In this document: positions 41,881-58,885 of the stretch, piece after piece
How positions within the stretch are numbered: position 1 is the stretch's first letter
How the letters are laid out: every line of letters begins with the position of its first letter
IMG/VR virus record: IMGVR_UViG_3300023440_000002
Location: 1 to 64,000 of that record
Reading direction: 5' to 3' (one strand)
Source of the DNA: a virus
Length of the DNA stretch: 64,000 nt
The notes under the pieces: model-generated
What the model was told of the DNA's origin: nothing
The model's input: only the letters and a program-made list of their open reading frames with translations
Databases searched by the model: none
Position numbers and translations under genes: made by a program

Positions 41881-42060
41881 CACCTAACTAAAAGAAAGGG
41901 TAGTGTTATGGGCGAGATAATTAAACTTTTTAAAGATAAAAAGATCTCACACACAAAAAACAGTGAATTTAAAGACAAGGTGGAGAAAATTAAAGCTTCA
42001 TTACAAAGAATTCAAAAATTAATGGAAGTTCTGCGGGAACACCAAAAAAAGGAAACCTAA

Positions 42061-42714
42061 ATGAAAAACACCAAAAAGAAGATTTTTTTCTATTCCGACC
42101 CTCATTATGGGCACGATAACGTAATCGGTTTCTGCAAAAACAGAAAATACAACACAATCGAAGAAATGAATGAGGATTACATTAAAAAATACAACCAAAT
42201 GGTACCTGAAGATGGGGTTGTGTTTTGGTTAGGCGATTGTTTTTTTAAGACAAGTAAGGACAACGCAAAAAACATAATGGATCAGCTTAACGGAACTAAG
42301 GTTTTGATTAGGGGGAATCACGATTGGGGTGTTAATGCTATGTATAAATTGGGTTTTTCTGCGGTGGTAGAATACGCTGAAATGTATATTTCTGGTTTGC
42401 CCGTAAAATTAAAGCATTTTCCTAGCAAGTATACTTCCAGCAAGATCAAAAACTGGCTTAAGTTTAATAAGTTGACTAGGTGGCTATCAAGGGTTTTGCC
42501 TGTCAAGCCTATCTATATTCCTAGGTATTTCAATAGGTTTCCAGAGCAGGACGGGAAATGGTTACTTCATGGTCACACCCACTCTACGGATAAGGTCGAT
42601 TACAAACACAAAATGATTCATGTGGGCGTCGATGCTTGGGGCGGACGTCCCGTACCTTTTAGTAGTATAGAGTCAATCATAAACAGAACAATAACACAAA
42701 AAAAGAAAGATTAA
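42061..42714 (+). CDS. calcineurin-like metallophosphoesterase
   Basis: SDPHYGH, LGD, GNHD, HGHTH, VGVD. Confidence 0.92.
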   Translation: MKNTKKKIFFYSDPHYGHDNVIGFCKNRKYNTIEEMNEDYIKKYNQMVPEDGVVFWLGDCFFKTSKDNAKNIMDQLNGTKVLIRGNHDWGVNAMYKLGFSAVVEYAEMYISGLPVKLKHFPSKYTSSKIKNWLKFNKLTRWLSRVLPVKPIYIPRYFNRFPEQDGKWLLHGHTHSTDKVDYKHKMIHVGVDAWGGRPVPFSSIESIINRTITQKKKD

Positions 42715-42840
42715 AGCACACTCAAGGTTTCAAAGGCTTAACGGTAGGTTTAACTACGACAGAAGCCCCTCTTCGAGTTGATGGGTGTATTATTTTCATA
42801 GTTGAGTCCTAAAAAAAAGTGGTTATTTATTATATTAGGC

Positions 42841-42867
42841 TAAAGTTTTTCATCAAACGACCGATAA
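42841..42867 (+). promoter_or_regulatory. sigma-28 (FliA)-type promoter
   Basis: TAAAGTTT-N11-ACCGATAA upstream of 42904. Confidence 0.85.
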
Positions 42868-42903
42868 GGTTAATAACAATAACGCTTCAAAGGAGATAGC
42901 GAG

Positions 42904-43797
42904 ATGGCAGAACTAAAAGAGAAGTTAACGGCATTAACAAAAGATCAAGAAGGGGCTATGGAGGGGTACAAAGACGAAGGTTGTCGTATCGGTCTTACTC
43001 TTGAAGATAACAAAACCGACCCAAAAAGAGTTCATGATATTATGAATCAGTTAAGGGTTTCTTGTGGTTTTGAAGAAGCCGAAGATTTTGTTTACCTTGA
43101 TAGCCCTAAGGCGGCTGTTTCAGGGTATGAAGAGTGTAATGTGCATAATTGTATGTACGGGTATCATGACATCAACTGGATTCAACACTACATGTTCTTT
43201 AAGAAAGAAACTGAGATTGAAGTTGACGATCGGATTGATCTTATGTTGGAGTTAGCGGAAACAGCTGGCTGGATGTGGATGACACCTAAACTGAATATTA
43301 TCACCAAAAGACCGGTTAAGTTAAACATGATCAAAAAAAGCAACAACATTAAGGTTATGCATAACTACAACGGAAAAGCTGTCGAGTTTGCTGACGGTTA
43401 CGGGGTTTATATGATTAATGGGGTTCAAATCCCAAAAGATCTAACTTACTTGGTCGATATGCCGGCCGAAGAGATAGACATCAAAACTGTCCTTGATATT
43501 AAAAACACCGAAATTAGAACAGAATTCCTAAAAAAGGTCGGTATCGAAAAGGCTTTTGATTCTCTATCTAAAACAAAACTAGACGAAAAGGAGATGGAAA
43601 TTGGTGGAACTTACGAGTTGTTTTCTGTTCAATTAGGTGAAGTTACTCGCATTTACCTAAGAGGTGAGTGCCCAAGCAATCAAGAACCTTTCTTTGAAGG
43701 TTGCCATCCGGACTGCAAAACAGTAGAGCAGGCTTTGAATTTCCGTAACGGGTTCAAACTTAACCTTAAGTTTAATGCACCACTAAACTTAACCTAA
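42904..43797 (+). CDS. DUF6745-like protein
   Basis: YGYHDINW, GWMW..ITKRP, HNYNGKAVEFADGYGVYMINGVQIP, NTEIR, CPS..C motifs. Confidence 0.75.
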   Translation: MAELKEKLTALTKDQEGAMEGYKDEGCRIGLTLEDNKTDPKRVHDIMNQLRVSCGFEEAEDFVYLDSPKAAVSGYEECNVHNCMYGYHDINWIQHYMFFKKETEIEVDDRIDLMLELAETAGWMWMTPKLNIITKRPVKLNMIKKSNNIKVMHNYNGKAVEFADGYGVYMINGVQIPKDLTYLVDMPAEEIDIKTVLDIKNTEIRTEFLKKVGIEKAFDSLSKTKLDEKEMEIGGTYELFSVQLGEVTRIYLRGECPSNQEPFFEGCHPDCKTVEQALNFRNGFKLNLKFNAPLNLT

Positions 43798-43807
43798 AAG
43801 CCTAATA

Positions 43808-43845
43808 AAAAAAAAGAGGATGCTGAGGCACACCCTCTTTTTTTT
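43808..43845 (+). terminator. intrinsic terminator
   Basis: A-run, GAGG..CCTC stem, T8. Confidence 0.6.
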
Positions 43846-43920
43846 AAAAAAACACTTGAAACTTAATATTAATTGTAGTAGACTAACCAACGAAAAGAGC
43901 AATTAAGCTCAAAAGGAGAA

Positions 43921-44307
43921 ATGTATATGCAGTACTACCAGCAAGGTGACGTTTTGCTAAAGAAGGTTTCAGTCCTTCCAAAGGAAGCAAAAAAGATTAA
44001 AGGGAAGGTTCTTCAAGAATCTGAGATTACAGGCCATCACCATCATTTTAAGGGTAACGCAGCGGTTGATCTATATCAAACCCTCGAAACTCCAACTAAT
44101 GATAAAACCATCACACCGAACTTTGGCAAATTCATCATTGTTAAAGAAATGTCAGATCTTTTCCACGGAAAAGGCTTTGACGCCACCCCTGCGGCACTAA
44201 ACCGAGGCGACCATGACGCAATCTCTATTCCACCTGGAATTTACGAGATCGATATCGTTAGAGAGTACGACTTTGACGCAAATGAGGTTTCTCGAGTGGT
44301 CGATTAA
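43921..44307 (+). CDS. QGDV-motif His-rich protein (usual neighbour of DUF6745 genes)
   Basis: YQQGDVLL..ESEITGHHH..H..DHDAISIPPGIYEI..VREYD..VVD; TTGAAA-N17-TAGACT at 43856-43884. Confidence 0.75.
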   Translation: MYMQYYQQGDVLLKKVSVLPKEAKKIKGKVLQESEITGHHHHFKGNAAVDLYQTLETPTNDKTITPNFGKFIIVKEMSDLFHGKGFDATPAALNRGDHDAISIPPGIYEIDIVREYDFDANEVSRVVD

Positions 44308-44317
44308 TCGACCACTT

Positions 44318-44354
44318 AAAGGGGTGTCATTTTTACATGACACCCCTTTTTTTT
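44318..44354 (+). terminator. intrinsic terminator
   Basis: AAAGGGGTGTCAT..ATGACACCCCTTT followed by T-run. Confidence 0.85.
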
Positions 44355-44748
44355 ATAGCAAAAAAACCTAATATTATAAGCAAAGAGAGGTAACTGATTG
44401 ATATGTTTGAACTGTAAATTAGGTTATATGACCAGGCATCATGAACAACCATTTGGTGTGAATGAGTGGGTTAAGTGTTCGTTATGTTCATACTGTTGCA
44501 AAGGAAGTACGGATGATAGTTGTTATAAAAAAAAGCACCTTAGCCGAAATGAAGAAAAGAATCCAGAGATTAGAAACCCTCCACTTGAAAGCAGTAGAAA
44601 GAGCTGAAAAAGCAATTAAAGACCTCGAAAAAGCAACTAAAAAAAAGAAACCTGAGTGCTCACACACTTTTAACCCAAAATGGGAATCACACATTGGACC
44701 AGCCCCTTGCTTGAAGTGCGGCCATGTAGTGTACCAAACGGACATCTA

Positions 44749-45171
44749 ATGACTTTACTAGTAGACCTACAAAACTTAACGATTGGCACACAGACGAAGC
44801 AGATCGACGCTAATGATTCATACATGGAACATGCCGGACCGGTAGACTTCCGTTCGTTCATGGAATCAAAAGCAAGAAAAGGCGAAACTTCCGCCATGTT
44901 CCACTTAGAAAAGGAAGGTAATGCCAGAATAAGAAAGGCAGGTTACCAGTCTCTCAGTGGTCAAATAGGCACCTTAAGACCAGAACCTGGTCGAGGACTG
45001 ATAAGTCGTAATGGGGTAGGGTGGCTTTATATGAACCTGTCCACTTTAAATGAAACACAATTCAAAGCAGAGGTGCAAGATTTTATAGATTATCTAGAAT
45101 CAGAGGGTATCGTAATAACATCAGAGATAGTAGGTACTTCCATGGCGGACATTGGGGTTTCTTGGGCTTAG
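44749..45171 (+). CDS. hypothetical protein
   Basis: ATG at a TAATG overlap with the preceding small ORF. Confidence 0.6.
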   Translation: MTLLVDLQNLTIGTQTKQIDANDSYMEHAGPVDFRSFMESKARKGETSAMFHLEKEGNARIRKAGYQSLSGQIGTLRPEPGRGLISRNGVGWLYMNLSTLNETQFKAEVQDFIDYLESEGIVITSEIVGTSMADIGVSWA

Positions 45172-45186
45172 CTCGCAAAACTTAAC

Positions 45187-45213
45187 TAAAGTTTTTCAGC
45201 AAAGATCCGATAG
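45187..45213 (+). promoter_or_regulatory. sigma-28-type promoter heading the + strand mini-gene array
   Basis: TAAAGTTT-N11-TCCGATAG. Confidence 0.7.
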
Positions 45214-45259
45214 GGTGTATGTAAATGGCAAGTAGCTAACCCAATAAGGGAAAACCTAG

Positions 45260-47494
45260 ATGGAAACTAAATCTATTGCAAGTAAGGTTCACAGGAAGGT
45301 TCACGAGCAGATTCGCTGGCAGGTTTTCGGGCAGATTAACTGGGAGATTAGCAACCAGGTTGCCGATCAAATAATCAATCCAATAATCAATCCAATAAGG
45401 GATGATCTAAATGGAAACTAAAGATATTACAAAAGATGTTCGCCAGCAGGTTTACGAGCAGGTTCGCCAGGAGGTTTACGAGCAGGTTAACCGGCAGGTT
45501 CGCTGGAAGGTTGACGAGCAGATTCACTGGCAAATTCGAGATCAGGTTTACCGGCAGGTTCGCTGGCAGATTAACTGGCAGATTAGCGATCAGGTTAACT
45601 GACAAATAACTGAACCAATAAAGGATAACCTAGATGAAAGCTAAAGATATCACAAAAGAGGTTTACCGGCAGGTTCGCTGGCCGATTCTCGAGCAGGTTG
45701 CCGATCAAATAATCAATCCAATAATCAATCCAATAAGGGAAAACCTAAATGGAAGCTAAAGTTATTACAAATATAACCGATAAGATTTACAGTCAGGTTC
45801 TCAACCAGGTTAGCGACCGGATTCACGAGCAGCTTTACTGGGAGATTTACGGGCAGGTCCACGACCAGGTTCTCGGGCAAATATCTGACCCAATAGAGGA
45901 AAACCTAGATGGAAGCTAAAGTTATTACTAATAATATTTACGACCAGGTTCGCCAGAAGATTAAACAGCAGATTTTCGAGCAAGTTTATTGGCAAGTTAG
46001 CTTGCAGGTTCGCTGGTATATTAGCGATCAGATTAACCAGCAGGTTCGCGAGCAAATAGCCACCCCAATAAGGGAAAATCTAAGTGGAAACTGAAGATAT
46101 TACAAAAGAGGTTCGCCGGCATATTGTCAAGCAGATTAACTTGCAGGTTCGCGATCAAGTAACTAATCCAATATGGACTGATCTAAATGGAAACTAAAGA
46201 CGTTACAAATACAGCCGATCAGTCCCGCCGGCAGGTTCGCTGGAAGGTTGCCGATCAGGTTTTCGACCAGGTTAATGATCAGGTTAATGATCAGGTTTAC
46301 TGGCAGATTAACTGGGAGATTAGCAACCAGGTTGCCGATCAAATAATCAATCCAATAATCAATCCAATAAGGGATGATCTAAATGGAAACTAAAGATATT
46401 ACTAATGAGGTTCGCCAGCAGGTTTACTGGGAGATTCACAGTCAGGTTAACTGGCATGTTCGCAACCAGGTTCGCAACCAGGTTCGCCGGAAGGTTTTCT
46501 CGCAGATTTACGAGCAGGTTTTCGGGCAAATAACTAACCCAATAAAGGAAGATCTAGATGGAAACTGAAGATGTTACAGATAAGATTTACTATCGAATTA
46601 CCGGACAGGTCCGCAATCAGGTTGAGTGGCAGGTTCGCAGGCAGGTTCGTGACCAGATTATTGACCAGATTTACGACCAGATTGACGAACAAATAGTTAT
46701 CCCAATAAAGGAAAATCTAAATGACTGAAGCTAAAGTTATTAAAAATAAGATTTACCGGCAGATTCGCGGCCAGATTTGCCGGCAGATTAACCGGCAGAT
46801 TCGCTGGCAGACTCGCAGTCAGATTTGCCGGCAGATTAACTGGGATATTCGCGATCAGGTTCGCATTCAGATTTACGATCAGGCTAATGATCAAATATTT
46901 AATCCAATAAGGGATGATCTAAATGGAAACTAAAGATATTACAAATACAGCCGATCAGTCCCGCCGGCAGGTTCGCTGGAAGGTTGCCGATCAGATTTTC
47001 GACCAGGTTAATGATCAGGTTTACTGGCAGGTTTTCGGGCAGATTAACTGGGAGATTAGCAACCAGGTTGCCGATCAAATAATCAATCCAATAATCAATC
47101 CAATAAGGGATGACCTAAATGGAAACTAAAGATATTGCAAAAGAGATTCACGAGCAGGTTTACGAGCAGGTTTGCGACCAGGTTAGCGAGCAGGTTCGCC
47201 GGCAGGTTCGCCGGCAGGTTTACTGTCAGATTGGCGACCAGACTTACTGGCAAGTAACTAACCCAATAAGGGATGACCTAAATGGAAACTGAAGATATTG
47301 CAAAAGAGATTCACGAGCAGGTTGGCGAGCAGATTCGCCGGCAACTTTACGAGCAGGTTAACCGGCAGGTTCGCTGGAAGGTTGACGAGCAGATTTACTG
47401 GAAGGTTCGCTGGCAGATTCTCAACCAGGTTTCCGAGCAAATTACCAATCAGATTATCTGACAGATTCAAAACCCAATAAGGGATAACCCCTAA
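45260..47494 (+). repeat. array A: 13 overlapping paralogous mini-genes (METKDI..(Q[VI]xx)n..NPI[KR]xDLNGN)
   Basis: Units at 45260-45421, 45411-45602, 45634-45759, 45749-45919, 45909-46094, 46084-46197, 46187-46393, 46383-46568, 46558-46728, 46721-46933, 46923-47129, 47119-47292, 47282-47461; conserved junction CCAATAAGGGAnnAnCTArATGGAAACTAAAG. Confidence 0.9.
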
Positions 47495-47516
47495 ATAAAC
47501 TAAGAAAGGAACTATT

Positions 47517-47738
47517 ATGGCAAAGCAAGAATCAACACCGTGGGATGACCTAGAAGGAAGATTGGTCAACTACAAAAAACTACACCAGAAGAAAGCCACC
47601 GGACCACTCAAGGAAGAACTGGCTAAGGCAAAAACCCTAACTCAAGCTAGAAAGGTACTCTTCGGAGAAAAGAAGAAAAGAATCAATTGCTCTAATTGCT
47701 CACACAAAGTTTGTGTTTGCGGGAAAACTTCCCGTTGA
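47517..47738 (+). CDS. small hypothetical protein with Cys cluster
   Basis: AAGGA RBS; CSNCSHKVCVCG. Confidence 0.6.
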   Translation: MAKQESTPWDDLEGRLVNYKKLHQKKATGPLKEELAKAKTLTQARKVLFGEKKKRINCSNCSHKVCVCGKTSR

Positions 47739-47906
47739 TTTTCGCAGTGAAGGTCAAAATAGAATCATTTGACTCGAGGTTTACTGAAATAACCCAAGAC
47801 CTTTATTTCAGTAAACCTCCTAGTGAACAAGAAATAACCAAAGAGGCTTCTATTGACCCGCAAGTAAAGTGGTCATACATCGTAAAAAGAGTAATCATAA
47901 TCAACA

Positions 47907-48161
47907 ATGAAGGTATTTAACTTAATATTATGGCTTAAGGGATTGTTCTCTAAAAAGGGTATATCACACACTATTATGAAACCCCAAGGATTTAACGCCC
48001 TTAAGCCTAGCACCCCATCTAATTGCATTTATTGCGAAAACCAATGGGAAGAATTCGACCAGCATTCTTATGAAAGATGCAGTAAATGCTTCGATCTAAC
48101 CAACCTCCACCCAAGCAAAGTAACTTTAAAGAACAATAAAATCACCATTAACTTCGAGTAA
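47907..48161 (+). CDS. small hypothetical protein with two CxxC
   Basis: CIYC..CSKC. Confidence 0.5.
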   Translation: MKVFNLILWLKGLFSKKGISHTIMKPQGFNALKPSTPSNCIYCENQWEEFDQHSYERCSKCFDLTNLHPSKVTLKNNKITINFE

Positions 48162-48165
48162 ACCC

Positions 48166-50391
48166 ATGACTAAATACGAACAATTCAGACAATACATCGC
48201 CCAATTCCTCCAAGGCCCTAACGTAGAAGCGATACTTAATAGTTTAGCAGACGATTCAACTAAACTAGAAAACCTATCGAGATCCGTAACAGACCAGCTA
48301 ACCATATCGACAGCCTCAAGTGTTTACTTAGATAAAAGACTAGCTGACAAAGGAATAACTCGCCCACCAGAACTAGGCATGTCTGACATATCATTCCGTA
48401 AGATGGGAATACAAATAACTGCGGCTAAGCAACTAACTGGATTAATCCATACGATACTGGGCACTTTCTATGGTGAAGAAGCAGTAAGGGCTAACCTGAA
48501 GAATACTAAGACAGGACCTTACAACCTAGAAGAAGGAATGGAACTAGAGTTCGAACTAGAGGATGGTATTACTAGGGTGGTATCATTCAAAAACACAGAC
48601 TTCATAAACATCAACCAAGCTACGGCATCAGAGGTAGCATCAGTAATAACACGATTCATAAGAACACAGAACTTAGGAGCTTTTGCTAGTACAGTAAAGG
48701 ACTTAAACACAGGCTTAGAGTTCATAAAGTTGTTCGGTGGAGCTGCGGGGCCATACTCAACAGTGACAGTCACAGGAGGCGAAGCTAATACAATCCTGCA
48801 ATTTCCTAATATTAGAGGAACCGAGCTGTTAGTTAATGATACAGCATGGGAGATTACCCGTACCGTAGGCAGCACATTACGGTTCAGATGGGCAGGCAAT
48901 TCCAAACCGGCATTAGACTTGATATTTCCAACCGACCGCGTAATGATTTACGGGCAAAGTTTTGAGTCTATTGGACTGGCCGGAACTTTTATTGTCTCAA
49001 ACGTACGACCTCCACTGATCGGCCCAGACCTAGACGCAGGGTGGTTCGAGATAGAAGTCCCTGCTTTCAGTGGCTTACGTTCTACTCAGCCTGGCACAAC
49101 ACCCCCAACTAACGTACCACCCGACACTATCTATTCTTATACCATAGTTCAAGCCAACTGGGAAGAGCTAATGTTCATGAAGCCAGTCAAAGCTTTACCT
49201 AACCGCCAGGTGCGTTACGCCTTAGGTTGGGAGCCTAGAGGTGATTTGCTGCGAATTTATATGCCGGCAACAACTGGTATTGTCTCTAGGGGGATTGAAG
49301 GTGCAGCACACTTACATTCGCTTTACGAGGACGGTAATCTGGATGGGGCTTTCGGCTCTGTTACGGATCTTGACTCCGCAGTGGAAGTTATCTCAGATCG
49401 CATTATACGATACCGCCAACTAGGTTACGATAATCACGCTACGGGAGGAGTATTGTCTTGGGGTGGTAATGACTACGAAATCGATTATGTCCGGCGTGAG
49501 CAATTCACCTCTACCGTATTTTTGAATGAGCCCCACGGATTGCCGGTAGTGCAAGATTCTTTCGGGCGCGACGTTTCTTTGGAAGTGGTATCTGTTGTGG
49601 TGGATATTATGCAGACAGACGATTTAGAATTCAAATCCCCCTATATGGTTGACCTAGGTAAGAACTACACCGTCAGGTCTGAGTTTGTTACTTCTCGCGC
49701 TAAGGTGTTTGCGGGTTCCACCCTGTCCACTTTGGATGTGGATGGTATTTTACCTAATGAGCCAGGGGTATTATTGTTCGACTTAAACACCGACAAAGAA
49801 GAAGGCCCTATTCGTTATGTTGGGGTTCAGGCTCAAAACGCCCCTAACGTGGTGAATATAGTGACTATTTCCCAAAACGGGCTGAATGTTACCATTACCA
49901 CAGATGCTCCTCACGGCGCTACTAGTGGCAGCAACATAGTAATATCAGGTACAACTTTCTTTGATGGGGTGTATCCCGTAGTGGGCGTACCTAACCCGAC
50001 TACCATCCAAGCGATTTCCACTGTCGTCCAGGTGGAGAATGAGGTTGGGGTAGGTAGCTTGTCTGTTGTGGTGGATAATGTTCGGTCTACGTTGCTGCTC
50101 GACCCTAGCAATGAATTCAAGTTTGATCATGAAATAGGAGCTGACTTAACTTTGATGTCTTCTAGGAATGCCTACCAGCCTGCCTTAGATGGCTCAGATT
50201 ACCCGTTCTACGTTACTGGGGTAGCTGAGGGTAGAGTTTTCGCTGCGGACGTCATAGAGGCTATTACGGCGTTAGGGATTAATATCGAAATATTGATCGT
50301 CTACCCAAGCGATAAAGGCCTAGGCAACGAAGGAGGTTCAGATGGTAATGAAACCCCTGTGTCAGATAAAGTTACGGTTTGGGGTGTTTAA
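48166..50391 (+). CDS. baseplate wedge protein (I/gp7-like partner of J)
   Basis: TASSVYLDKRLADKGITRP..MSDISFRK N-terminus; shares F..ATA.E and TTDAPHG repeat motifs with the J-like protein. Confidence 0.7.
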   Translation: MTKYEQFRQYIAQFLQGPNVEAILNSLADDSTKLENLSRSVTDQLTISTASSVYLDKRLADKGITRPPELGMSDISFRKMGIQITAAKQLTGLIHTILGTFYGEEAVRANLKNTKTGPYNLEEGMELEFELEDGITRVVSFKNTDFININQATASEVASVITRFIRTQNLGAFASTVKDLNTGLEFIKLFGGAAGPYSTVTVTGGEANTILQFPNIRGTELLVNDTAWEITRTVGSTLRFRWAGNSKPALDLIFPTDRVMIYGQSFESIGLAGTFIVSNVRPPLIGPDLDAGWFEIEVPAFSGLRSTQPGTTPPTNVPPDTIYSYTIVQANWEELMFMKPVKALPNRQVRYALGWEPRGDLLRIYMPATTGIVSRGIEGAAHLHSLYEDGNLDGAFGSVTDLDSAVEVISDRIIRYRQLGYDNHATGGVLSWGGNDYEIDYVRREQFTSTVFLNEPHGLPVVQDSFGRDVSLEVVSVVVDIMQTDDLEFKSPYMVDLGKNYTVRSEFVTSRAKVFAGSTLSTLDVDGILPNEPGVLLFDLNTDKEEGPIRYVGVQAQNAPNVVNIVTISQNGLNVTITTDAPHGATSGSNIVISGTTFFDGVYPVVGVPNPTTIQAISTVVQVENEVGVGSLSVVVDNVRSTLLLDPSNEFKFDHEIGADLTLMSSRNAYQPALDGSDYPFYVTGVAEGRVFAADVIEAITALGINIEILIVYPSDKGLGNEGGSDGNETPVSDKVTVWGV

Positions 50392-52671
50392 GATCTCCCC
50401 TTATCAGGTTAGCTACTTGCCAGCTAACCTGCCAGTGAACCCGGTTGCTAGTCTGACGTTGAATATGCCAGTAAACCTGTCCGCTAACCTGCTCGTAAAC
50501 CTGCCGGTAAATCTGCTCGCGAATCTTATTAGCAATATCATTAGTTTTCATCGATATCATCCTTTATTTGGTTAGCTACTTGCCAGCTAATCTGCTCGAG
50601 AATCGGCCAGCGAACCTGCCTTCTAATCTTATTGCTAACCTGCCAGCGGACCTGCCAGTGAACCTGCCAGATAACCTGCCAGTAAATCTGCTCGCGAACC
50701 TGCTGGCGAATCTCTTTTGCAATATCATTAGTTTCCACTTAGGTCGCTCCATATTGGATCAGTTATTTGCAGGCGAACCTGCTCGCAAGCCTGCCGGTGA
50801 ACCTGCCATCCAACCTGCCAGCTAACCTGCTCGATAACCTGCTCGAGAATCTGCTCGTAAATCTGCTCGCGAATCTTACTTGTAATATCATTAGTTTCCA
50901 TTCAGATTATCCCTTATTGGGTTGGCTATTTGCTGGCCAACTTGGTCGATAATCCGGTCGCTAACCTGCCGGTAAACCTGCTCGATAACCTTCCAGTAAA
51001 CCTGGTCGTCAATCTGCTCGAGAATATGCCAGCAAACCTGATCGTAAACCTCCTGGCGAATCTCTTTTGCAATATCATTAGTTTCCACTTAGGTCGCTCC
51101 ATATTGGGTTGGCTATTTGCTCTTGAACCTGCCAGTAAACCTGGTCGTTAACCTTCCAGTAAACCTGTCCGCTAACCTGCTCGTAAACCTGTCGGTAAAT
51201 CTGCTCGCGAACCTGATCGATAACCTGCCCTCGAACCTGCTGGCGAATCTCTTTTGCAATATCTTCAGTCATATAGATCATCCTTGATTGGATTAGCTAC
51301 TTGCAGGCGAACCTGCTCGTAAACCCGCCAGTTAATCTGGTCGTCAATATGGCCGTAAATCTTCCAGCGAATTTCTTTTGTAATACCTTTAGCTTTCATT
51401 AAGGTTATCCTTTATTGGGTTAGCTATTTGATCGAAAACCTGGTCGATAACCTGCCCGCTAACCTGGTCGTCAATCTGCTCGAGAATATGCCAATAAGCC
51501 TGGTCGTTAACCTGCCCCAGAACCTGCTGGCGAACCTGCCAACGAACCTCATTAGTAATAACTTTAGCTTTCATCTAGGTCGCTCCATATTGGATCAGTT
51601 ATTTGCAGGCGAACCTGGTCTCGAATCTCCCAGTGAACCTGCTCGATAACCTGCAAGTTAATTTGCTTGACAATATGCAGGTAAGCCTTCCAGCTAATCT
51701 CTTTTGCAATATCTTCAGTCATTTAGGTTTTCCTTTATTGGGTTAGTTATTTGCCAGCTAACCTGCTCGAGAATCTGCCAATTAACCTGCTCGATAACCT
51801 GCCAGTAAACCTGTTCGATAACCTGCCGGCGGATCTGGTTGCGAACCTGCCCGCTAACCTGGTCGTCAATCTGACAGTAAACTTGCCAGCTAATATCTTC
51901 AGTCATTTAGGTTATCCTTTATTGGGTCAGATATTTGATCATGAACCTGCCATCCAATCTGCCATCCAATCTGCCGGAAAACCTGCCAGTAAACCTGTCG
52001 GCGAACCTTCCAGAGAGCTTGGTCGTTAACCTGATCATTAACCTGCCGGTGAACATCTTTTGCAATATCTTCAGTTTCCATTTAGGTTATCCTTTATTGG
52101 GTCAGATATTTGATCATGAACCTGCCATCCAATCTGCCATCCAATCTGCCGGAGAGCCTGGTCGTTAATCTGCCAGTAAATCTGTTGGTGAATCTGCTGG
52201 TGAATCTCATTAGTAATATCTTTAGCTTTCATCTAGGTCTTCCCATATTGGATTAGCTATTTGCTCGAAAACCTGCTCGTAAACCTGCCGGCGAACCTGG
52301 TCGTAAACCTGCCCGCGAATCTGCCAGTAAATCTCCCAGTAAACCTGCCAGTTAACCTCTTTTGTGATATCTTCAGATTCCATTTAGATCTACCTTTATT
52401 GGGGTGGCTATTTGATTGCGAACCTGCTCGTAAACCTGCCGGCGAACCTGGTCGCAAACCTGCCCGCGAATCTGCCAGTAAATCTCCCAGTAAACCTGAT
52501 CATTAATCTGCCAGTGAAGCTTCCAGTGAACCTGGCCGTTAATCTGCTCTCGAACCTGCTGGCGAATCTCATTAGTAATATCTTCAGCTTTCATCTAGGT
52601 CATCCATTATTGGGGTGGCTATTTGATTGCGAACCTGGTCGCTAACCTGCCGACCTTACTTTACATAAACC

Positions 52672-52698
52672 TTATCGGTTATGTCTGTAATAACTTTA
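52672..52698 (-). promoter_or_regulatory. sigma-28-type promoter inside an array stub unit
   Basis: TAAAGTTA-N11-ACCGATAA. Confidence 0.7.
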
Positions 52699-52958
52699 GC
52701 TTTCACTTAGGTCTCCACCTATTAGGTTACGAACCTGCCGGCGAACCTGCCAGTGAACCGGCAGGTTAATTTGCTCGACAATATGCAAGTAAGTCTTCCA
52801 GCTAGTCTGCTGGTTAACCTGCTGATGGATCTTCCAGTGAATCTGCCGGCGAATCTCTTTTGTAGTATCTTTAGTTTCCATTGAGATTTTCCTTTATTGG
52901 GTCAGTTATTTGATTGCGAGCTTGATCGTCAATTTGCCGACCTTACTTTACATAAACC

Positions 52959-52985
52959 TTATCGGCTATATCTGTAATAACTTTA
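52959..52985 (-). promoter_or_regulatory. sigma-28-type promoter inside an array stub unit
   Basis: TAAAGTTA-N11-GCCGATAA. Confidence 0.75.
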
Positions 52986-55525
52986 GTTTCCATGCAGATC
53001 TTCCCTTATTGGTTCAGTTATTTGCCCATGAACCTGGTCGTGAACTTGCCAGTTAATTTGATCGAGAATCTGGCCGTGAACCTGGTCGCCAATCTGCTGA
53101 TAAACACCCCGGCTAATCTGATCATTAATCTGCTGGTGAATCTTACCTATAATATCTTCAGTTTTCATTAAGATCTTCCCATATTGGGTCAGTTATTTGC
53201 AGGCGAACCTCCCAGTAAGTCTGGTCGCCAATCTGCCAGTAAACCTGCCGGCGAACCTGCTCGAGAACATGGCCGCGAATCTGATGGTAAATCTCCCAAT
53301 CAACCTGCCAGTGAATCTTACTTGTAATATCTTTAGTTTTCATTTAGGTCTACCTTTATTGGAGAGGTTGTTTGCCAGCGAACCTGCATATCAACCTGAT
53401 CTAGAATCTGCCGCTGAATCTGCCAGCGAACCTGATAGTGAACCTGATCTCGAATTTGCCAGTAAATCTGCCAGTTAACCTCTTTTGTAATATCTTTAGT
53501 TTTCATCGAGGTCATCCTTTATTGGGTCGGATATTTGATTGTAAACCTGATTGTGAACCTGATCTAGAATCTGCCAGTAAGCCTGCCAGTAAGTCTGCCC
53601 GCTAGCCTGGCCTTTAATACGCTCGAGAATCTGGCCGTGAACCTCCCAGTGAACCTGATCGTAAATATGCCCGCTAGCCTGCTGGCCAACCTGATTGGTA
53701 ATTTGATCGTCAACCTGCTCGTCAACCTGCCAGTAAATCTGTTGACTAATCTGATTATGTACCTTGTCGGCTATATCTTTAGTTTTCATTTAGGTCATCC
53801 TTTATTGGGTTAGCTACTTGCTGGTGAACCTGCTCGTGAACCCGCCAGTAAACCTCCTCGTAAGTCTCCTCGTAAACCTCCCAATAAACACAATCGTAAA
53901 GATGCTTGCTAACCTTATCGAGAATCTGATTGCGAACCTGCCAGTGAATCTCATCGTGAATCTTACCTGTAATACCATCAGCTTCCATCTAAGTCTTCCT
54001 TTATTGGGATGGTTATTTGCCAGCGAATCTGATCGCGAACATGCCAGTTAACCTTCCAGCGAACCTGCTCGAGAATCTCCCAGTCAACCTGCTCGCTAAC
54101 CTTCCAGCGAATCTGACTGTAAATCTTACTTGCTATATCTTCAATTTTCATTTAGGTCATCCTTTATTGGGTCGGATATTTGATTGTAAGCCTGCTCGTG
54201 AACATGCTGGCGAACCTGCCGGTTAACCTGCTCGTAAACCTCCCAGCTAACCTGGTCGCAAATCTGCTCGAAAACCTGGTCGCGAATCTCCCAGTGAATA
54301 CCCCAATGAACCTGGTCGTAAACCTGCGAGCGAACATCTTTTGTAATATCTTTAGTTTTCATCGAGGTCATCCTTTATTGGAGAGGTTGTTTGCCGGCGA
54401 ACCTTACCGTGAATCAGCCAATTAACCTGTTCGCGAATCTGACTGTAAACCTGCCAGTGAACCTGCTCGTAAATCTGCCAGTGAGCGTGACTGACAATTC
54501 GATTGTGAATTTTGTCGGCTATATCTTTAGTTTTCATCGAGGTCATCCTTTATTGGGTTAGCTACTTGCTCGTGAACCTGATTGTGAACCTGATCTAGAA
54601 TCTGCTCGCTAATCTGCTTGCGAACCTCCCAGTAAGCCTCCCAGCGAATACCCCAATGAACCTGGTCGTAAACCTGCTTATAAACCTTATTTGCGGCAAT
54701 TTTAGCTTCCATTTAGTTCATCCCTTATTGGGTTGGCTATTTGATTTCGAATTTGCCTATGAATCTGCTTGCGAACCTCCCAGTAAACCTCCCAGCGAAC
54801 CTGCAAGTTAATCTGCTTGACAATATGCAGGTAAACCTCCCAGCTAATCTCTTTTGTAATATCATTAGTTTCCATCTAGATCTTCCTTTATTGGGTTAAG
54901 TATTTGATCACGAATCTGCCAGTTAACCCTCGAGTAAGCCCTCCAATAAACCAAATAATCAACCTGCTCGCGAACTTGCCAGTAAATCTTCCGGTAAACC
55001 TGCTGGCGAATCTCATTAGTAATATCTTCAATTTCCATTTAGGTCTTCCCATATTGGATCAACTCCTTGCTCACGAACTTGAGCGTAAATCTGCCAGTAA
55101 ATCTGCCAGCGAACCTTCCGGTTAACTTTCTCGTGAATATGATTGATAGTCTGCCGGCGAATCTGCTGGCGAACCTGGTCGTGAATCTCTTTTGTAATAT
55201 CTTCAGTTTCCATTTAGGTCATTCCTTATTGGGTCGATTATCTGTACGTGAACCTGCCAGCGAACATGCAAGCGAACATGCTCGAGAATCTTCCAGTAGG
55301 GGTTCCGGCCAACCTGATCAACGACCTGCTCTCGAACCTGGTCGTAAACCTGCTTATAAACCTTATTTGCGGCAACTTTAGCTTTCATTTAGATCTTCCT
55401 TTATTGGGATAACTATTTGCCCGCGAATTTGATCGTTAATCTGCTCGTTAATCTGTTCGCGAACCTGCCCTCGAACCTGCCAATAAGTCTGCCAGTCAAC
55501 CTTCCAACTAATCTCGCTACACACC

Positions 55526-55552
55526 TTATCGGTTATACCTGTAATAACTTTA
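55526..55552 (-). promoter_or_regulatory. sigma-28-type promoter inside the first unit after the ClpP-like gene
   Basis: TAAAGTTA-N11-ACCGATAA. Confidence 0.7.
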
Positions 55553-55572
55553 GCTTTCATTTAGATCTTCCT

Positions 55573-56115
55573 TTATTCGCTCAAATACACAGCACCATCA
55601 ACAAAACCCGGAGCTATCTTGTCCAGGTACTCTCTATTCATATAGGTTTGGTTCTTGATTAGTTCTTTATAATTCGGAGGGTTAAATATCTTATTGATCT
55701 CTTTATGAATAAAAACATTATCTTTAATTGTCTTTTTAGAATCTTCCATTGTTACAATACATCGAGACGGACAATAATAATACAAGTTATGCATCATCAT
55801 TGTTGCTTTTGGCGTTAAGTGCCTGGTATCACACAAGGTTGAAATATAAAAGGCCATACTTAGGGCTTTCTTAATCAGGCAATGAACTTTAAACCCTCTC
55901 TTTTTAATGTCCTGAATTGAAGCCCCTAGCTGAAAAAAAGGCGTAACCGGCCCTCCAGGACTGTCAATTGTTAAATAAACATCCCGATGGGTCAACCTAA
56001 TATAAACTGCCAACGCAGATGCCGACATAGAATCGGTAAGCTTTAGTTTAGATACTTCACTAGCTGAAACCTGACTAGGCAACAGGATCATTAAAATTAA
56101 AAGTAAGTATTTCAT
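55573..56115 (-). CDS. ClpP-like serine peptidase with signal peptide
   Basis: VYLTIDSPGG, ALSMAF (Ser), MMMH (His); N-terminal MKYLLLILMILLPSQVSA. Confidence 0.8.
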   Translation of the reverse strand: MKYLLLILMILLPSQVSASEVSKLKLTDSMSASALAVYIRLTHRDVYLTIDSPGGPVTPFFQLGASIQDIKKRGFKVHCLIKKALSMAFYISTLCDTRHLTPKATMMMHNLYYYCPSRCIVTMEDSKKTIKDNVFIHKEINKIFNPPNYKELIKNQTYMNREYLDKIAPGFVDGAVYLSE

Positions 56116-56129
56116 ATTGTTCCTTTCTG

Positions 56130-58120
56130 TTAGGGTTTAATCTCTATTCCATTAACCTTATCGGCTATATCTGCAATATCTTTAGTTTCCATTTAGATCT
56201 ACCTTTATTGGTTCAGTTATTTGCTGGTCAACCTGGTCGCAAACCTGCCAGTGAATATGCCAGTCAACCTGCCAGCGAATCTCCCAGTGAGCCTGGTCAT
56301 TAATCTGACGGTCAACCTCCTGACGAATCTTTTTTGTAATATCTTTAGTTTCCATTTAGGTCTTCCTTTATTGGGAGGGTTATTCGGTCGTCAATCTTTA
56401 AGTGGATCTCCCAGAGAACCTCCCGGCGAATCTTCCGACTAATCTGCTCATCAACCTGCTCATCAACCTGCTTATAAGTTTGGTTGTCAATCTGCAAGCG
56501 AACCTGCTCGATAACCTCATTAGTGATATCTTTAGTTTTCATCTAGGTTTTCCTTTATTGGGTTAGCTACTTGCTCGTGAACCTGCTCGTCAACATTCCA
56601 GTAAATCTCCCGGCTCACCCCCCTGTCAACCTGCCGGTTAATCTGCCAATAAACCTGATCGCTAATCTCCCGACGAATTTTATTACCAGTATCTTCAGCT
56701 TTCATCTAGATCATCCTTTATTGGGTTAGCTACTTGCTCGTGAACCCGCCAGTAAACCTGCCTGTGAACCTTCCAGCGAACCTGCCCTCTAGCCTGCCAA
56801 TTAATCTGTTTGTGAACCTTCCAGCGAACCTGCTCGTCAAACTCTTTTGTAATATCTTTAGCTTCCATCTAGGTCTTCCTTTATTGGGAGGGTTATTTGC
56901 TCGTCAATCTTTAAGTGGATCTCCCAGAGAACCTCCCGGCGAATCTTCCGACTAACCTGCCAACAAACCTGCTCATCAACCTGCTTATAAGTTTGGTTGT
57001 CAATCTGCAAGCGAACTTTATTACCAATATCTTTAGCTTCCATCTAGGTCTTCCTTTATTGGGTCGAATACTTGATTGTAAACCTGGTCGTGAACCTGTC
57101 GGCGAACCTGTCGGTGAACCTGCCATCCAACCTGCCGGAGAACCTGACAGTTAGCCTGCCAGCTAACCTGCCAGCTAACCTGCCAGCTAACCTTTTTTAT
57201 AATACCTTTAGTTTCCATCTAGGTCTTCCTTTATTGGATTAGTTATTTGCTCGAAAACCTGGTCGCAAACCTGCCCGCGAATCTGCCAGTAAATCTCCCA
57301 GTAAAACTGATCATCAATCTGCCAGTGAACCTGGCCGCGAATCTGCCAGTAAACCTGGTCGTCAACCTCCCGACGAATCTTTTTTATAATACCTTTAGTT
57401 TCCATCTAGGTCTTCCCTTATTGGATTGGTTATTTGACCGAAAACCTGCAAGAGAGCATGCAAGCGAACATGCAAGCGAACCTTCCAATAAATCTGCCAG
57501 TCATCCTGCCAGTTAACCTGCTCGAGAATCTGGTCGCGAATCTCTTTTATAGTATCACTAGCTTCCATCTAGGTTTTCCTTTATTGGGTCGGTTATTTGC
57601 TCGAAAACCTGGTCGTAAACCTGTCGGCGAATATGCCGGCGAACCTGCCATTCAATCTGCCCTCGAACCTGCCATCCAACCTGCCGGAGAACCTGACAGT
57701 TAGCCTGCCAGCTAACCTGCCCGCGAACCTGTTCGATAACCTCTTTTGCAATATCTTTAGCTTCCATTTAGGTCTACCATTATTGGGTTAGTTATTTGTG
57801 TGCGGATTTTACTGTAAGTACTCCAGCTGACCTGCATGTTAACTTCTTTTCGAGCGTTCCAATCAAAAACACTGCAAGCGGGTAGATTAGACAGATTAGC
57901 AATCTCATCAGTAATACCCAACCGTAAATCAATTATGTCTGTCATCGAGATCTCCCTTTATTGAAGCCATCACCTGCAAGCGGACCTCCAAGTGAATTGC
58001 AAAAGTGGTTTGTTGGTAAATGTAACTCCGAACATTAAACCTAAAGAGATCTGGGGAGTTACGTGTGCATTGACTTAGAAGGTCGATGGCTATCTTATGT
58101 TGAATATCAAGGACTTTCAT
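56130..58120 (-). repeat. array B proximal part: 12 mini-gene units
   Basis: Starts at 58120 and 57945 (divergent), 57767, 57568, 57405, 57218, 57043, 56868, 56705, 56542, 56355, 56192 (stub). Confidence 0.88.
56158..56184 (-). promoter_or_regulatory. sigma-28-type promoter in the stub unit upstream of the ClpP-like gene
   Basis: TAAAGATA-N11-GCCGATAA. Confidence 0.7.
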
Positions 58121-58329
58121 TTCATACCCTCTAGAAACTCAACTATATCTTCAATATCCAAGTATGAGTTGTAATGGTTAAGCACTTCCACGTCATTATG
58201 GTCCTTATCTATCAACATAAATTTCGTTGATAGGCCGTGAGTGTCGCCTTCCAAATTAACCCCTAAGTACATGTCATATTTAGCATATAATGCCCTTAGT
58301 TCTTCGCAAAACCCTTTAACCTTATTCAC
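58117..58329 (-). CDS. hypothetical protein
   Basis: 70 aa; AAGGAG RBS; ATGA overlap into the array. Confidence 0.65.
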   Translation of the reverse strand: MNKVKGFCEELRALYAKYDMYLGVNLEGDTHGLSTKFMLIDKDHNDVEVLNHYNSYLDIEDIVEFLEGMK

Positions 58330-58606
58330 TACTAGCTCCTTTAACCATCTCTATGATTAAATCATATATTCCTTTACTTTTAAAGTATTTAATTTCGAAA
58401 GACATTAACCCGCCAATAGACCGTATTTGATGCACAGCTTCCGACACCTCACAGCAATCCTCATAAAGGGTTGATTCATCTTCTTCGTACATCTGCCTCT
58501 GCAAGAATTCTTTCGTTATGCAGCTGCTGGTGGACATATCAACGTCCATATGGGCGTAAGACTGGATAATGATATCCTTTATTAGTTCGTTTCGTTTTGC
58601 TGTCAA
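58322..58606 (-). CDS. hypothetical protein
   Basis: TTG start with AAGGAG RBS, after a sigma-28 site. Confidence 0.65.
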   Translation of the reverse strand: MTAKRNELIKDIIIQSYAHMDVDMSTSSCITKEFLQRQMYEEDESTLYEDCCEVSEAVHQIRSIGGLMSFEIKYFKSKGIYDLIIEMVKGASSE

Positions 58607-58657
58607 AACTGTGCTCCTTCATTGCGGGTGATTACGCGGGTTCGCCGCCTAAAGGGT

Positions 58658-58684
58658 TTATCGGTTGACTTGCGAAAAACTTTA
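58658..58684 (-). promoter_or_regulatory. sigma-28-type promoter heading the operon containing array B
   Basis: TAAAGTTT-N11-ACCGATAA. Confidence 0.85.
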
Positions 58685-58885
58685 GCCTAATATTAACATA
58701 GAAGAAAGTGAGTTGTTTTGCTAATTTAAAGGCCATATATATGTGTAAAGACGAAGAGTTAGAAGAACTCAAAAAAGATATAGCTGAAAACAGCCGCCAG
58801 TTAGACTCTGATGTCGAAAGAGTTATCTACGAAAACCTGTCAGAGGTTTTCGCCTAATCGATTCCCGCCGTAAGAGAGGTTAAAG

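Follow-up and report, generated by a model that had tools for sequence, protein, structure and literature searches.

In the genome of an uncultured tailed phage, ~54 tiny genes coupled in translation encode free-standing, fast-changing Q[VI]xx repeats. These genes lie in a 64,000-nucleotide stretch of IMG/VR record IMGVR_UViG_3300023440_000002 (hereafter the window), and the locus that we observed there, a DUF6745-QGDV core pair together with arrays of mini-genes, is confirmed far beyond chance. Sequence comparisons indicate that related phages build the same Gln-Val/Ile-x-x tetrad repeat into a single DUF6745 protein, whereas the DUF6745 protein of the window phage is without it. The locus is a phage accessory module in which a conserved two-gene core is accompanied by a hypervariable tetrapeptide-repeat element: in many relatives this element is an internal DUF6745 tract, and in the window, as in five or more further lineages, it is a separately translated mini-protein array. 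A first-pass annotation of the window had proposed that the variable tract was moved out of DUF6745 into dozens of genes for interchangeable specificity subunits or decoys; as a whole, that interpretation is partly supported.

The first core gene (42904–43797, plus strand) encodes a 297-residue protein that had been annotated as DUF6745-like and is a true member of the family: firstly, it scores 44.4 bits against the PF20530 profile (E 1.5e-11; Pfam gathering cut-off 27); secondly, PF20530 is precomputed on 12 of 12 close homologues; thirdly, alignments place all of the DUF6745 motifs in it (DSP, YGxHDxxW, GWxW, LHNxxGxAxxYxDG..Y.LNG, NxExR, PS and LT). The family is large and mostly phage-borne, with 8896 relatives retrieved by profile search at E ≤ 0.001, and no paper in the literature mentions DUF6745 or PF20530 by name. 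An AF2 model of the product (pLDDT 95, pTM 0.82) matched no solved fold and no enzyme fold. Exactly 16 residues, none of them part of a tetrad, separate YLDSP (residues 64–68) from YGYHDINW (residues 85–92), in agreement with the repeat-less segment of about 16 residues noted at first pass. The insertion loop comprises residues 75–85, and aligning the protein with DUF6745 members, a check that had been suggested, placed the cis tracts of homologues between N79 and V80.

The second core gene (43921–44307, plus strand) encodes an all-beta protein of 128 residues whose sequence starts ..YYQQGDV, carries a GHHHH cluster and matches phrog_27831 (E 4e-10), as expected of the His-rich QGDV gene described at first pass. 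Alignment of 13 DUF6745-neighbour proteins revealed conserved residues at E35, H41, H98, E115, D117 and D128; a fold search with the AF2 model (pLDDT 74) gave no match, to an enzyme or otherwise. Across loci, adjacency of the two genes is near-obligate: where the flanking sequence is long enough to hold the gene, a QGDV homologue almost always adjoins DUF6745. Some DUF6745 homologues bear an insert at the C-terminus (..W[YF]QQGDV..P.G..) with similarity to the N-terminus of the QGDV partner, a hint of contact within the core. The pair forms its own promoter-to-terminator unit here: a sigma-28-like motif (TAAAGTTT..N..ACCGATAA; 42841–42867, plus strand) precedes the DUF6745 start codon by 37 nt, and a strong intrinsic-terminator-like hairpin with a 13-bp stem and T run (44318–44359, plus strand) closes the unit. 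The motif, TAAAGTT-N-CCGATAA, is real and enriched, with 10 sites in the window versus 0.41 expected.

The mini-genes, put at about 55 in the first-pass annotation, number 52 intact ORFs with products of 37–97 residues, 13 on the plus strand (45260–47461) and 39 on the minus strand (50372–58120), plus two interrupted units that bring the minus-strand count to 41. Array A (45260–47461, plus strand) begins 1–1.5 kb downstream of the core pair and holds 13 Q[VI]xx mini-genes of 37–70 residues, two of them without a C-cap (45411–45602 and 47282–47461), as well as a sigma-28-like motif (45757–45783). Array B1 (50372–55560, minus strand) has 28 intact mini-genes, sigma-28-like motifs at 52672–52698, 52959–52985 and 55526–55552, and both interrupted units: one (52871–52993, minus strand) combines an N-cap bearing a promoter motif, an in-frame TAA after ..VYVK and a normal tail, and the other (52584–52706, minus strand) is of like build, with a GTG start, a promoter motif and an in-frame TAA after ..VYVK. 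Array B2 (56182–58120, minus strand) adds 11 mini-genes and a motif at 56158–56184; its most upstream units (57757–57945 and 57929–58120) keep the C-cap with few or no tetrads. A further sigma-28-like motif (58658–58684, minus strand) heads the minus-strand unit, upstream of two small genes (58322–58606 and 58117–58329) and the array. Most neighbouring units overlap by 11 nt (..CTAAATGGAAACTAA..) and have an AAGGA-type Shine-Dalgarno sequence ~9 nt before the ATG, and the ATG or GTG start, Shine-Dalgarno sequence, frame and stop are intact in 52 of 54. Two other genes are interspersed: a 741-residue ORF between the convergent arrays (48166–50391, plus strand), which has only a weak phrog_15814 match, no Pfam match and no homologue in other array loci and does not belong to the conserved module, and, embedded in the minus-strand array, a ClpP/S49-like serine protease of 180 residues with a signal-peptide-like N-terminus (55573–56115, minus strand; Pfam CLP_protease, E 1.1e-5; phrog_1827). 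Rfam models run against 42000–59000 gave no match to known RNA families or CRISPR-like arrays at gathering thresholds.

All Q[VI] pairs within every unit share one register modulo 4. Across 540 tetrads, position 1 is Q in 69% (otherwise E, K or H), position 2 is V or I in 92%, and the hypervariable residues are those at positions 3 and 4. The underlying 12-bp consensus is CAG RTT NNC NRG; nucleotides 7, 8 and 10, at which all four bases vary, hold 0.08–0.24 bits of information versus 1.0–1.7 at nucleotides 2, 3, 5, 6 and 9, so that, contrary to the phage's own codon use, these variable positions are near random while nucleotides 3, 6 and 9 are fixed. It is at the first two positions of the two variable codons that the units diversify, synonymous sites remaining uniform. 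In the QVxx frame the hypervariable codons contain no stops versus ~54 expected, and the same holds for the L015 and L017 arrays (0 versus 8 and 0 versus 10). The fixed codons differ between lineages (CAG GTT, TCT GTT, TCT GTA and CAG GTC), so that only the [Q/S]Vxx frame is conserved. These patterns indicate that the QVxx frame is the translated one. Identical stretches of at least 24 nt are common to 27 unit pairs versus 2.75 in controls, and five of the 27 pairs span both arrays, showing that units exchange segments.

The first-pass annotation had stated that many DUF6745 proteins carry a repeat tract at exactly the loop that is empty here, and this holds: at least 18 of 158 top-ranking homologues have [Q/S/N][V/I]xx tracts there, and a looser rule gives 27 of 171 rows. 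Most of the 158 have none; the tract is frequent in the family without defining it. Cis tracts run from 4 to ~85 tetrads in one surface loop between the DSP and YGxHD motifs, for example in P0054 (34 QVxx tetrads), P0081 (31 SVxx), L107, L028 and gp38 of the Mycobacterium prophage prophiGD102-1, and take the forms [D/A]AT[x] and DA[R/L]x in the high-GC proteins L008 and L026. Proteins with such tracts resemble the window in core family, QGDV neighbour and a period-4 grammar of two fixed and two hypervariable positions, and differ in that their repeat is internal, whereas the window pairs a tract-less core with ~54 separate repeat genes. None of the 53 rows in the window's own DUF6745 clade carries a cis tract, so that for this lineage a move of the tract out of DUF6745 is only a possible direction; another member of the clade, L002, has one QVxx mini-ORF upstream of its DUF6745 gene.

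We defined an array as at least five tandem ORFs of <130 residues with in-phase [Q/S][V/I]xx and diverse x3x4 residues, with a tract-less pair on the contig; the window has 52 intact units and such a pair. Tract-less DUF6745-QGDV pairs also adjoin free-standing tetrad arrays in at least five other lineages (L015/L016/L022; L017/L018/L027; G002; G003/L252; L201), the cores being 24–28% identical, and this is the co-occurrence in other phages that the first-pass annotation had suggested looking for. It had also named two sequence observations that would speak against it, DUF6745 homologues lacking Q[VI]xx tracts at the loop and arrays occurring independently of DUF6745 and QGDV genes, and neither is what we found. 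The G002, G003/L252 and L201 arrays were located by a DNA pattern blind to DUF6745, and the pair is on the same contig for four of the five arrays found in this way; the remaining one is a fragment, 23% complete, on which no core was seen. Only DUF6745 and QGDV are common to the window and the other array neighbourhoods. The other arrays, all from uncultured phages, share with the window the three-part module, translational coupling, a conserved cap at every junction and hypervariable x3 and x4; they differ in having S-V rather than Q-[V/I] tetrads and caps such as ..DWVKERNKEV, ..KEYDFNK, ..DYF.. and ..KSYDT, and the window differs from them in its two convergent arrays and in its promoter motifs inside units. 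The window library is the largest among the arrays examined, the others having ~7–24 units. In a small sample, each of the six array-linked cores is tract-less, and arrays are absent from all of the ~8 loci with cis tracts. The repeat is not needed for the basic role of the core, since there are many DUF6745-QGDV pairs with neither a tract nor a visible array (for example L009, with 7–10 kb flanks).

The nearest studied analogue is mycobacteriophage Tweety gp54, which is not a homologue. Within its 12-bp repeat, bases 1–6 and every third codon position are invariant while positions 7, 8, 10 and 11 vary, a pattern that its authors read as selection for variation (PMC2884959), and repeat copy number alters the phage-host conflict phenotype, tuning counter-defence against Phrann gp29/gp30 (PMC9262239). 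The window repeat has the same signature of invariant bases 1–6 and third positions; the gp54 group (Tweety gp54, Che8 gp57 and PMC gp51) comprises tetrapeptide-repeat proteins, and the tracts of L008 and L026 look much like the gp54 AAxx repeat. By contrast, the gp54 repeat is a covalent spacer between two domains with a fixed Ala-Ala, and the window units are free-standing ORFs. The domains flanking the gp54 repeat have no Pfam family and compare with DUF6745 at an hhalign probability of 0.4%, and inspection of the gp55 translation by eye revealed no QGDV-like neighbour. Since gp54 is not homologous outside the repeat, a counter-defence role for the window units would be by analogy only.

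On balance we lean towards a reading in which the mini-proteins work with the DUF6745-QGDV core, probably docking at the tract site, and engage fast-changing host targets. Each mini-protein would be a single long helix showing a stripe of variable W, R, Y, H, D, E and N side chains, and the model of one unit in the ESM Atlas is similar both to long single helices and to the tract portion of a DUF6745 cluster. Together they would form a standing repertoire of ~54 alternative binding surfaces, docking non-covalently on the core where relatives carry the tract; by analogy with Tweety gp54, their targets would most plausibly be defence proteins. The most striking feature of DUF6745, its hypervariable tetrapeptide tract, can exist as a separate library of more than 50 genes, which has stayed next to the core even between deeply diverged lineages. 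Tweety gp54 is the only studied protein with this repeat signature and tunes escape from bacterial defence; if the analogy holds, the arrays would give phages a novel means of keeping numerous specificities for counter-defence or host binding at the same time. The helical scaffold is simple, with two variable residues in each turn-and-a-bit, and might also be used as a platform for binder engineering. A stronger version, which we regard as rather unlikely, makes the tetrad helix a programmable recognition element: with two hypervariable side chains per 6-Å helical step and a grammar common to cis tracts and mini-genes, ~54 'paratope helices' would plug singly into, or sit beside, a DUF6745-QGDV chassis, and the library would bind and neutralise many host defence or receptor molecules. 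The virus would thereby encode a repertoire resembling that of antibodies, which slippage, gene conversion and diversifying selection would maintain.

The arrays lie outside the transcription unit of the core, beyond the terminator at 44318, and have their own promoters, which counts against a core-plus-arrays explanation and would suit small effectors that act autonomously, inhibiting, decoying or soaking up factors of the host or of rival phages, derived from the DUF6745 tract and making no contact with DUF6745 or QGDV, their synteny reflecting common origin and co-regulation in an accessory region. The caps, too, are unlike between lineages, the fragmentary array shows no core, and cap-bearing units without tetrads occur at 57757 and 57929 and in L017. 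Caps that are lineage-specific and partly reflect overlapping start and stop codons and the Shine-Dalgarno sequence need not be docking motifs. However, adjacency of array and core persists at 24–28% core identity in at least five lineages with varied gene orders, which common origin alone explains poorly, and the complementary distribution of tracts and arrays, in its small sample, fits complementation. We therefore give autonomous effectors about one chance in five, in second place to mini-proteins that work with the core.

Concerted evolution is evident from the uniformity of synonymous positions and from codons specific to each lineage, the units are mosaic, promoter motifs sit within N-caps and the same in-frame TAA breaks two units, all of which could be expected if the arrays acted mainly at the DNA level, with a 12-bp repeat prone to slippage, together with its junction, undergoing runaway expansion and gene conversion and being tolerated or used as promoter or recombination cassettes, with peptides of little function. 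This we consider improbable, given that translation signals are kept in 52 of 54 units, that the hypervariable codons are fully purged of stops, and that other lineages write the same protein grammar with different codons, and genuine DUF6745 proteins contain it too.

About as improbable, and if anything slightly more so, is that the tetrad tract is a substrate modified or processed by DUF6745 and/or the His-cluster QGDV protein, the arrays being a precursor library on the pattern of prochlorosin precursors or of borosins in their split and fused forms, with the ClpP-like protease as processing enzyme. The hypervariable core flanked by conserved N- and C-caps, the occurrence of both cis (fused) and trans (split) forms, the conserved QGDV His/Glu/Asp residues suggestive of a metal site and the protease gene inside the array would fit; prochlorosin-type libraries and the variable proteins of diversity-generating retroelements likewise comprise many small paralogues with conserved ends and a hypervariable core, varying at first and second codon positions as in the window. 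Yet Pfam and PHROG searches found no known RiPP enzyme family among the locus proteins, the protease has no homologue at other array loci, the DUF6745 and QGDV folds match no enzyme, and cores of 20–80 residues of helical repeat are unlike typical RiPP cores; moreover, the window differs from those systems in having no lanthipeptide synthetase, reverse transcriptase or template repeat, and its repeat also occurs in cis.

Least credible, and already disfavoured, is that translation uses another frame (N-L-[P/L]-x in antisense, or R-F-[T/A]-[G/S] in sense -1) or that a diversity-generating retroelement produces the variation: the most variable nucleotides (1, 4, 7 and 10) are wobble positions of both frames, junction polymorphisms are synonymous in the antisense one, and NNC/NRG codons with a fixed third base recall retroelement targets. 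But these frames are stop-free by construction, so that their openness carries no information; they have no ATG or Shine-Dalgarno sequence, end irregularly and change from lineage to lineage, L015 having N-R in antisense and L-F-G-I in sense. The variation is not adenine-specific and has no template repeat, and RVT_1 has no match on the 108-kb contig, although the record is 68% complete and a reverse transcriptase may lie elsewhere in the genome. Lastly, genes of this kind may often be missed in annotation, as a profile search of a 5.8-billion-protein collection retrieved just two of the contig's 52 units.

The window spans positions 1-64,000 of an IMG/VR virus record that is 108 kb long and, by CheckV, 68% complete; the source virus, a tailed phage, carries ribonucleotide reductase and baseplate genes immediately upstream of the locus. 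A gene at 42904-43797(+) matches Pfam DUF6745 above threshold and is followed at 43921-44307(+) by the QGDV gene, whose product starts ..YYQQGDV, carries a GHHHH cluster and matches phrog_27831. A sigma-28-like motif 37 nt 5' of the first gene and a terminator with a 13-bp stem directly 3' of the second indicate that this core pair is its own transcription unit. Three small genes (44398-45171, +), two of them with CxxC...CxxC zinc-ribbon-like motifs, separate the pair from an array of 13 mini-genes downstream (45260-47461, +). This array and a second of 39 mini-genes (58120-50372, -) converge on a 741-aa gene lying between them; the second array is broken by two TAA-bearing units and an embedded gene (55573-56115, -) for a ClpP/S49-like serine protease whose N-terminus resembles a signal peptide. 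Nearby, at 58886-60346(+), a 486-aa protein consists of two similar halves, each with ..KGSLQRRNPFNP.., ..RGMHKLHGLTQSRQNESGE.. and ..EQEVIVKPH.FN.., and has no matches in Pfam, PHROG or PADLOC. Against GenBank phages the locus gave no blastn match and a single distant tblastn match (MW202476); searching viral contigs with a single protein or an alignment (A1) returned no related loci, and neither Rfam nor PADLOC yielded anything relevant.

The mini-genes, the largest such library among the arrays examined, encode 37-97 amino acids (median 61): an N-cap (M-[E/K]-[T/A]-[K/E]-D-I-T), 5-20 tetrads, and a C-cap (..N-P-I-[K/R/W]-[E/D]-D-L-[N/D]-G-[N/S]). The stop of most units overlaps the following start by 11 nt, placing successive units in different frames, and an AAGGA-type Shine-Dalgarno sits within the C-cap codons. 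In every unit, all Q[V/I] pairs keep one register modulo 4. Across 540 tetrads, Q occupies position 1 in 69% (E, K or H in the rest) and V or I occupies position 2 in 92%; the commonest residues are R, Y, H, N, S and D at position 3, and W, D, E, R, N and G at position 4. Within the DNA consensus CAG RTT NNC NRG, bases 7, 8 and 10 are near-random and the synonymous bases 3, 6 and 9 near-fixed; the fixed bases give CAG and GTT, codons not favoured in the phage's other genes. The units at 57757-58120(-) keep the C-cap (..DL[ND]G[NS]) around a non-repeat body, as do some members of a metagenome array (L017:10681-13951) with the C-cap ..KEYDFNK, so the duplicating element may be the cap or junction and not the tetrads.

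The repeat holds three frames open: QVxx, an antisense frame (N-L-P/L-x) and a -1 frame (R-F-T/A-G/S). As the latter two have the variable bases at their wobble positions, we tested the frame explicitly. The antisense and -1 frames are stop-free whatever the variable bases; the QVxx frame can hold stops, and it has none as compared to ~54 expected from base frequencies, with 0 versus 8 and 0 versus 10 expected in the QVxx-type frame of two other lineages. Fixed residues elsewhere are encoded by TCT GTT, TCT GTA or CAG GTC, so that the alternative frames read quite differently between lineages while [Q/S]-V-x-x is kept. Moreover, the same tetrads lie in frame within long DUF6745 proteins, and ATG/GTG starts, Shine-Dalgarno sequences and regular stops occur only in the QVxx ORFs. 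Together, these data establish that the mini-genes are translated in the QVxx frame, as the first-pass annotation had read them; we rejected antisense or -1 coding on the stop test, the cross-lineage codons and the pattern of base variation. A profile search of a 5.8-billion-protein collection recovered two of the window's 52 units, which suggests that such mini-genes are often overlooked or put in the wrong frame by gene callers or clustering.

Using a profile built from 12 homologues, we found 8896 DUF6745 relatives at E <= 0.001. At least 18 of the best 158 homologues carry a run of up to 34 [Q/S/N][V/I]xx tetrads immediately before the YGxHD motif (27 of 171 rows under looser criteria), bearing out the statement in the first-pass annotation that many family members have a QVxxQVxx tract at the site where the window's protein has none. 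In the alignment proposed at that stage, these cis tracts are inserted between residues N79 and V80 of the window's protein, in a loop between helices 68-74 and 86-102 of a confident AF2 model (pLDDT 95). Other lineages fix other residues (xSAV, [D/A]AT[x], DA[R/L]x); two high-GC DUF6745 genes encode ~85 [D/A]-A-T-x tetrads (L008:2600-4747, +) and a very long D-A-[R/L]-x tract (L026:9020-10462, +). The viral share of DUF6745 clusters is 69-91%, and a form fused to an LRR occurs in cyanobacteria. The fold gave no Foldseek match at E <= 0.001 (best VIA Z 5.3, covering 72 residues in a small sheet), PDB sequence profiles returned nothing for the core proteins, neither of which resembles any solved fold or, outside its own DUF/PHROG, any named family, and our literature search found DUF6745 (PF20530) mentioned in no paper.

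Free-standing arrays beside repeat-less cores recur in other phages. Two groups of metagenome loci (L015/L016/L022 and L017/L018/L027) each combine a repeat-less DUF6745 gene, a QGDV partner and an adjacent coupled S-V-x-x array with its own caps. We also tested co-occurrence by scanning IMG/VR with 12-bp-periodic DNA patterns that were blind to DUF6745. Most of the 236 matches were unrelated perfect simple repeats (QVQV, EVKP, SVPG, EVTE) and were set aside on inspection, leaving five contigs with true variable-tetrad arrays; in four (G002, G003, L201, L252), DUF6745 and QGDV lie directly beside the array, and in the fifth (G001, a fragment 23% complete) the array begins at the contig end. 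Since the G002 and G003 cores are 94% identical and L252, with the layout of G003 and identical BLAST statistics, is probably a near-copy of it, the four contigs represent fewer than four independent lineages, best counted as L015, L017, G002/G003/L252 and L201, plus the window. The window shares only DUF6745 and QGDV with the other array neighbourhoods, at 24-28% identity; the ClpP-like protease has no counterpart in the array loci compared, and we rejected it and the 741-aa gene as conserved module parts.

In a quick tree, the window's core groups with tract-less proteins in a clade that is well supported, and the other five array-linked cores fall in a separate clade; the window adds a second core clade, one with Q-[V/I] tetrads. 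One member of the window's own clade (L002) has a single QVxx mini-ORF upstream of DUF6745. Cis tracts are scattered on this tree, with 24 changes across 27 rows. Within this small sample, each of the six array-linked cores lacks a tract, and no array accompanies any of ~8 cis-tract loci; many DUF6745-QGDV pairs have neither. In the S-V-x-x clade, the mini-protein C-cap ..[K/R]DYF.. resembles both the post-tract junction ..VKDFIWPY.. of a cis-tract protein (L028) and the remnant ..VEEYF.. at the same site in tract-less cores, a likeness that fits descent of these mini-genes from a tract.

The QGDV partner, likewise named in the first-pass annotation as a neighbour of DUF6745, is adjacent in every locus with space for it among 28 metagenome loci retrieved with the DUF6745 profile, and it often overlaps the DUF6745 gene by a few bases. 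Its alignment conserves E35, H41, H98, E115, D117 and D128, residues that would suit a metal site; a fold search reached a best Z of 3.6, and Pfam gave nothing consistent for 13 homologues. Six DUF6745 homologues (P0104, P0121, P0137, P0138, P0127, P0012) carry a ~20-residue C-terminal insert, ..[DE]W[YF]QQGDV..P.G.., resembling the N-terminus of the separate partner. This insert may be a partial fusion, a hint, though not proof, that the two proteins are in contact.

Exact matches of >=24 nt between unit bodies, many of them at differing offsets, link 27 unit pairs, as compared to 2.75 in tetrad-shuffled controls, and five of these pairs span both arrays. A diversity-generating retroelement was rejected, as no reverse transcriptase was detected on the 108-kb contig, itself 68% complete. 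Shared segments and uniform synonymous sites point to concerted evolution through slippage and gene conversion, with diversity kept only at the two variable residues. The motif TAAAGTT-N(11-13)-(G/A)CCGATAA, sigma-28/FliA-like, occurs at 10 sites in the window (23374, 33278, 40842, 42841, 45757, 52672, 52959, 55526, 56158 and 58658) versus 0.41 expected, and probably marks the phage's promoter class for one gene set. Five motifs are encoded within mini-gene N-caps (..KVITxITDK..). Two of these units (52871-52993 and 52584-52706, -) carry an identical in-frame TAA behind ..VYVK, immediately 3' of the motif; with tail and coupling to the following unit intact, they may have been converted to pure promoter cassettes.

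The model of one unit in the ESM Atlas is similar to long single helices and to the tract portion of a DUF6745 cluster; the clusters nearest to it are small viral proteins with 50-137 members. Tweety gp54, a mycobacteriophage protein with the same pattern of repeat variation (PMC2884959), is the only protein of this build to have been studied; mutants in which it has gained or lost tetrads escape the Phrann gp29/gp30 defence (PMC9262239). Its Ala-Ala-x-x repeat looks close to the L008 and L026 tracts. The protein is not a DUF6745 member. We lean modestly towards reading the units as variable helices that are translated and form a diversifying repertoire, acting together with the DUF6745-QGDV core in conflict with the host; taken by itself, the evolutionary and genomic connection is highly probable. 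The observational and genomic part of the first-pass annotation (tract site, QGDV neighbour, array co-occurrence) stands, and its functional proposal remains conjectural: the mini-proteins might act as interchangeable specificity subunits or as decoys.

In other phages, MORN-like repeat proteins (..HREDGPA.EW.DG.K.WYLNGK..) cluster near DUF6745 (L015:4200-5692, L017:7481-7804, L017:8969-9244). The DUF6745 profile weakly picks up such proteins, and the central hairpin of DUF6745 (LHN..G.A..Y.DG..Y.LNG) is itself MORN-like.
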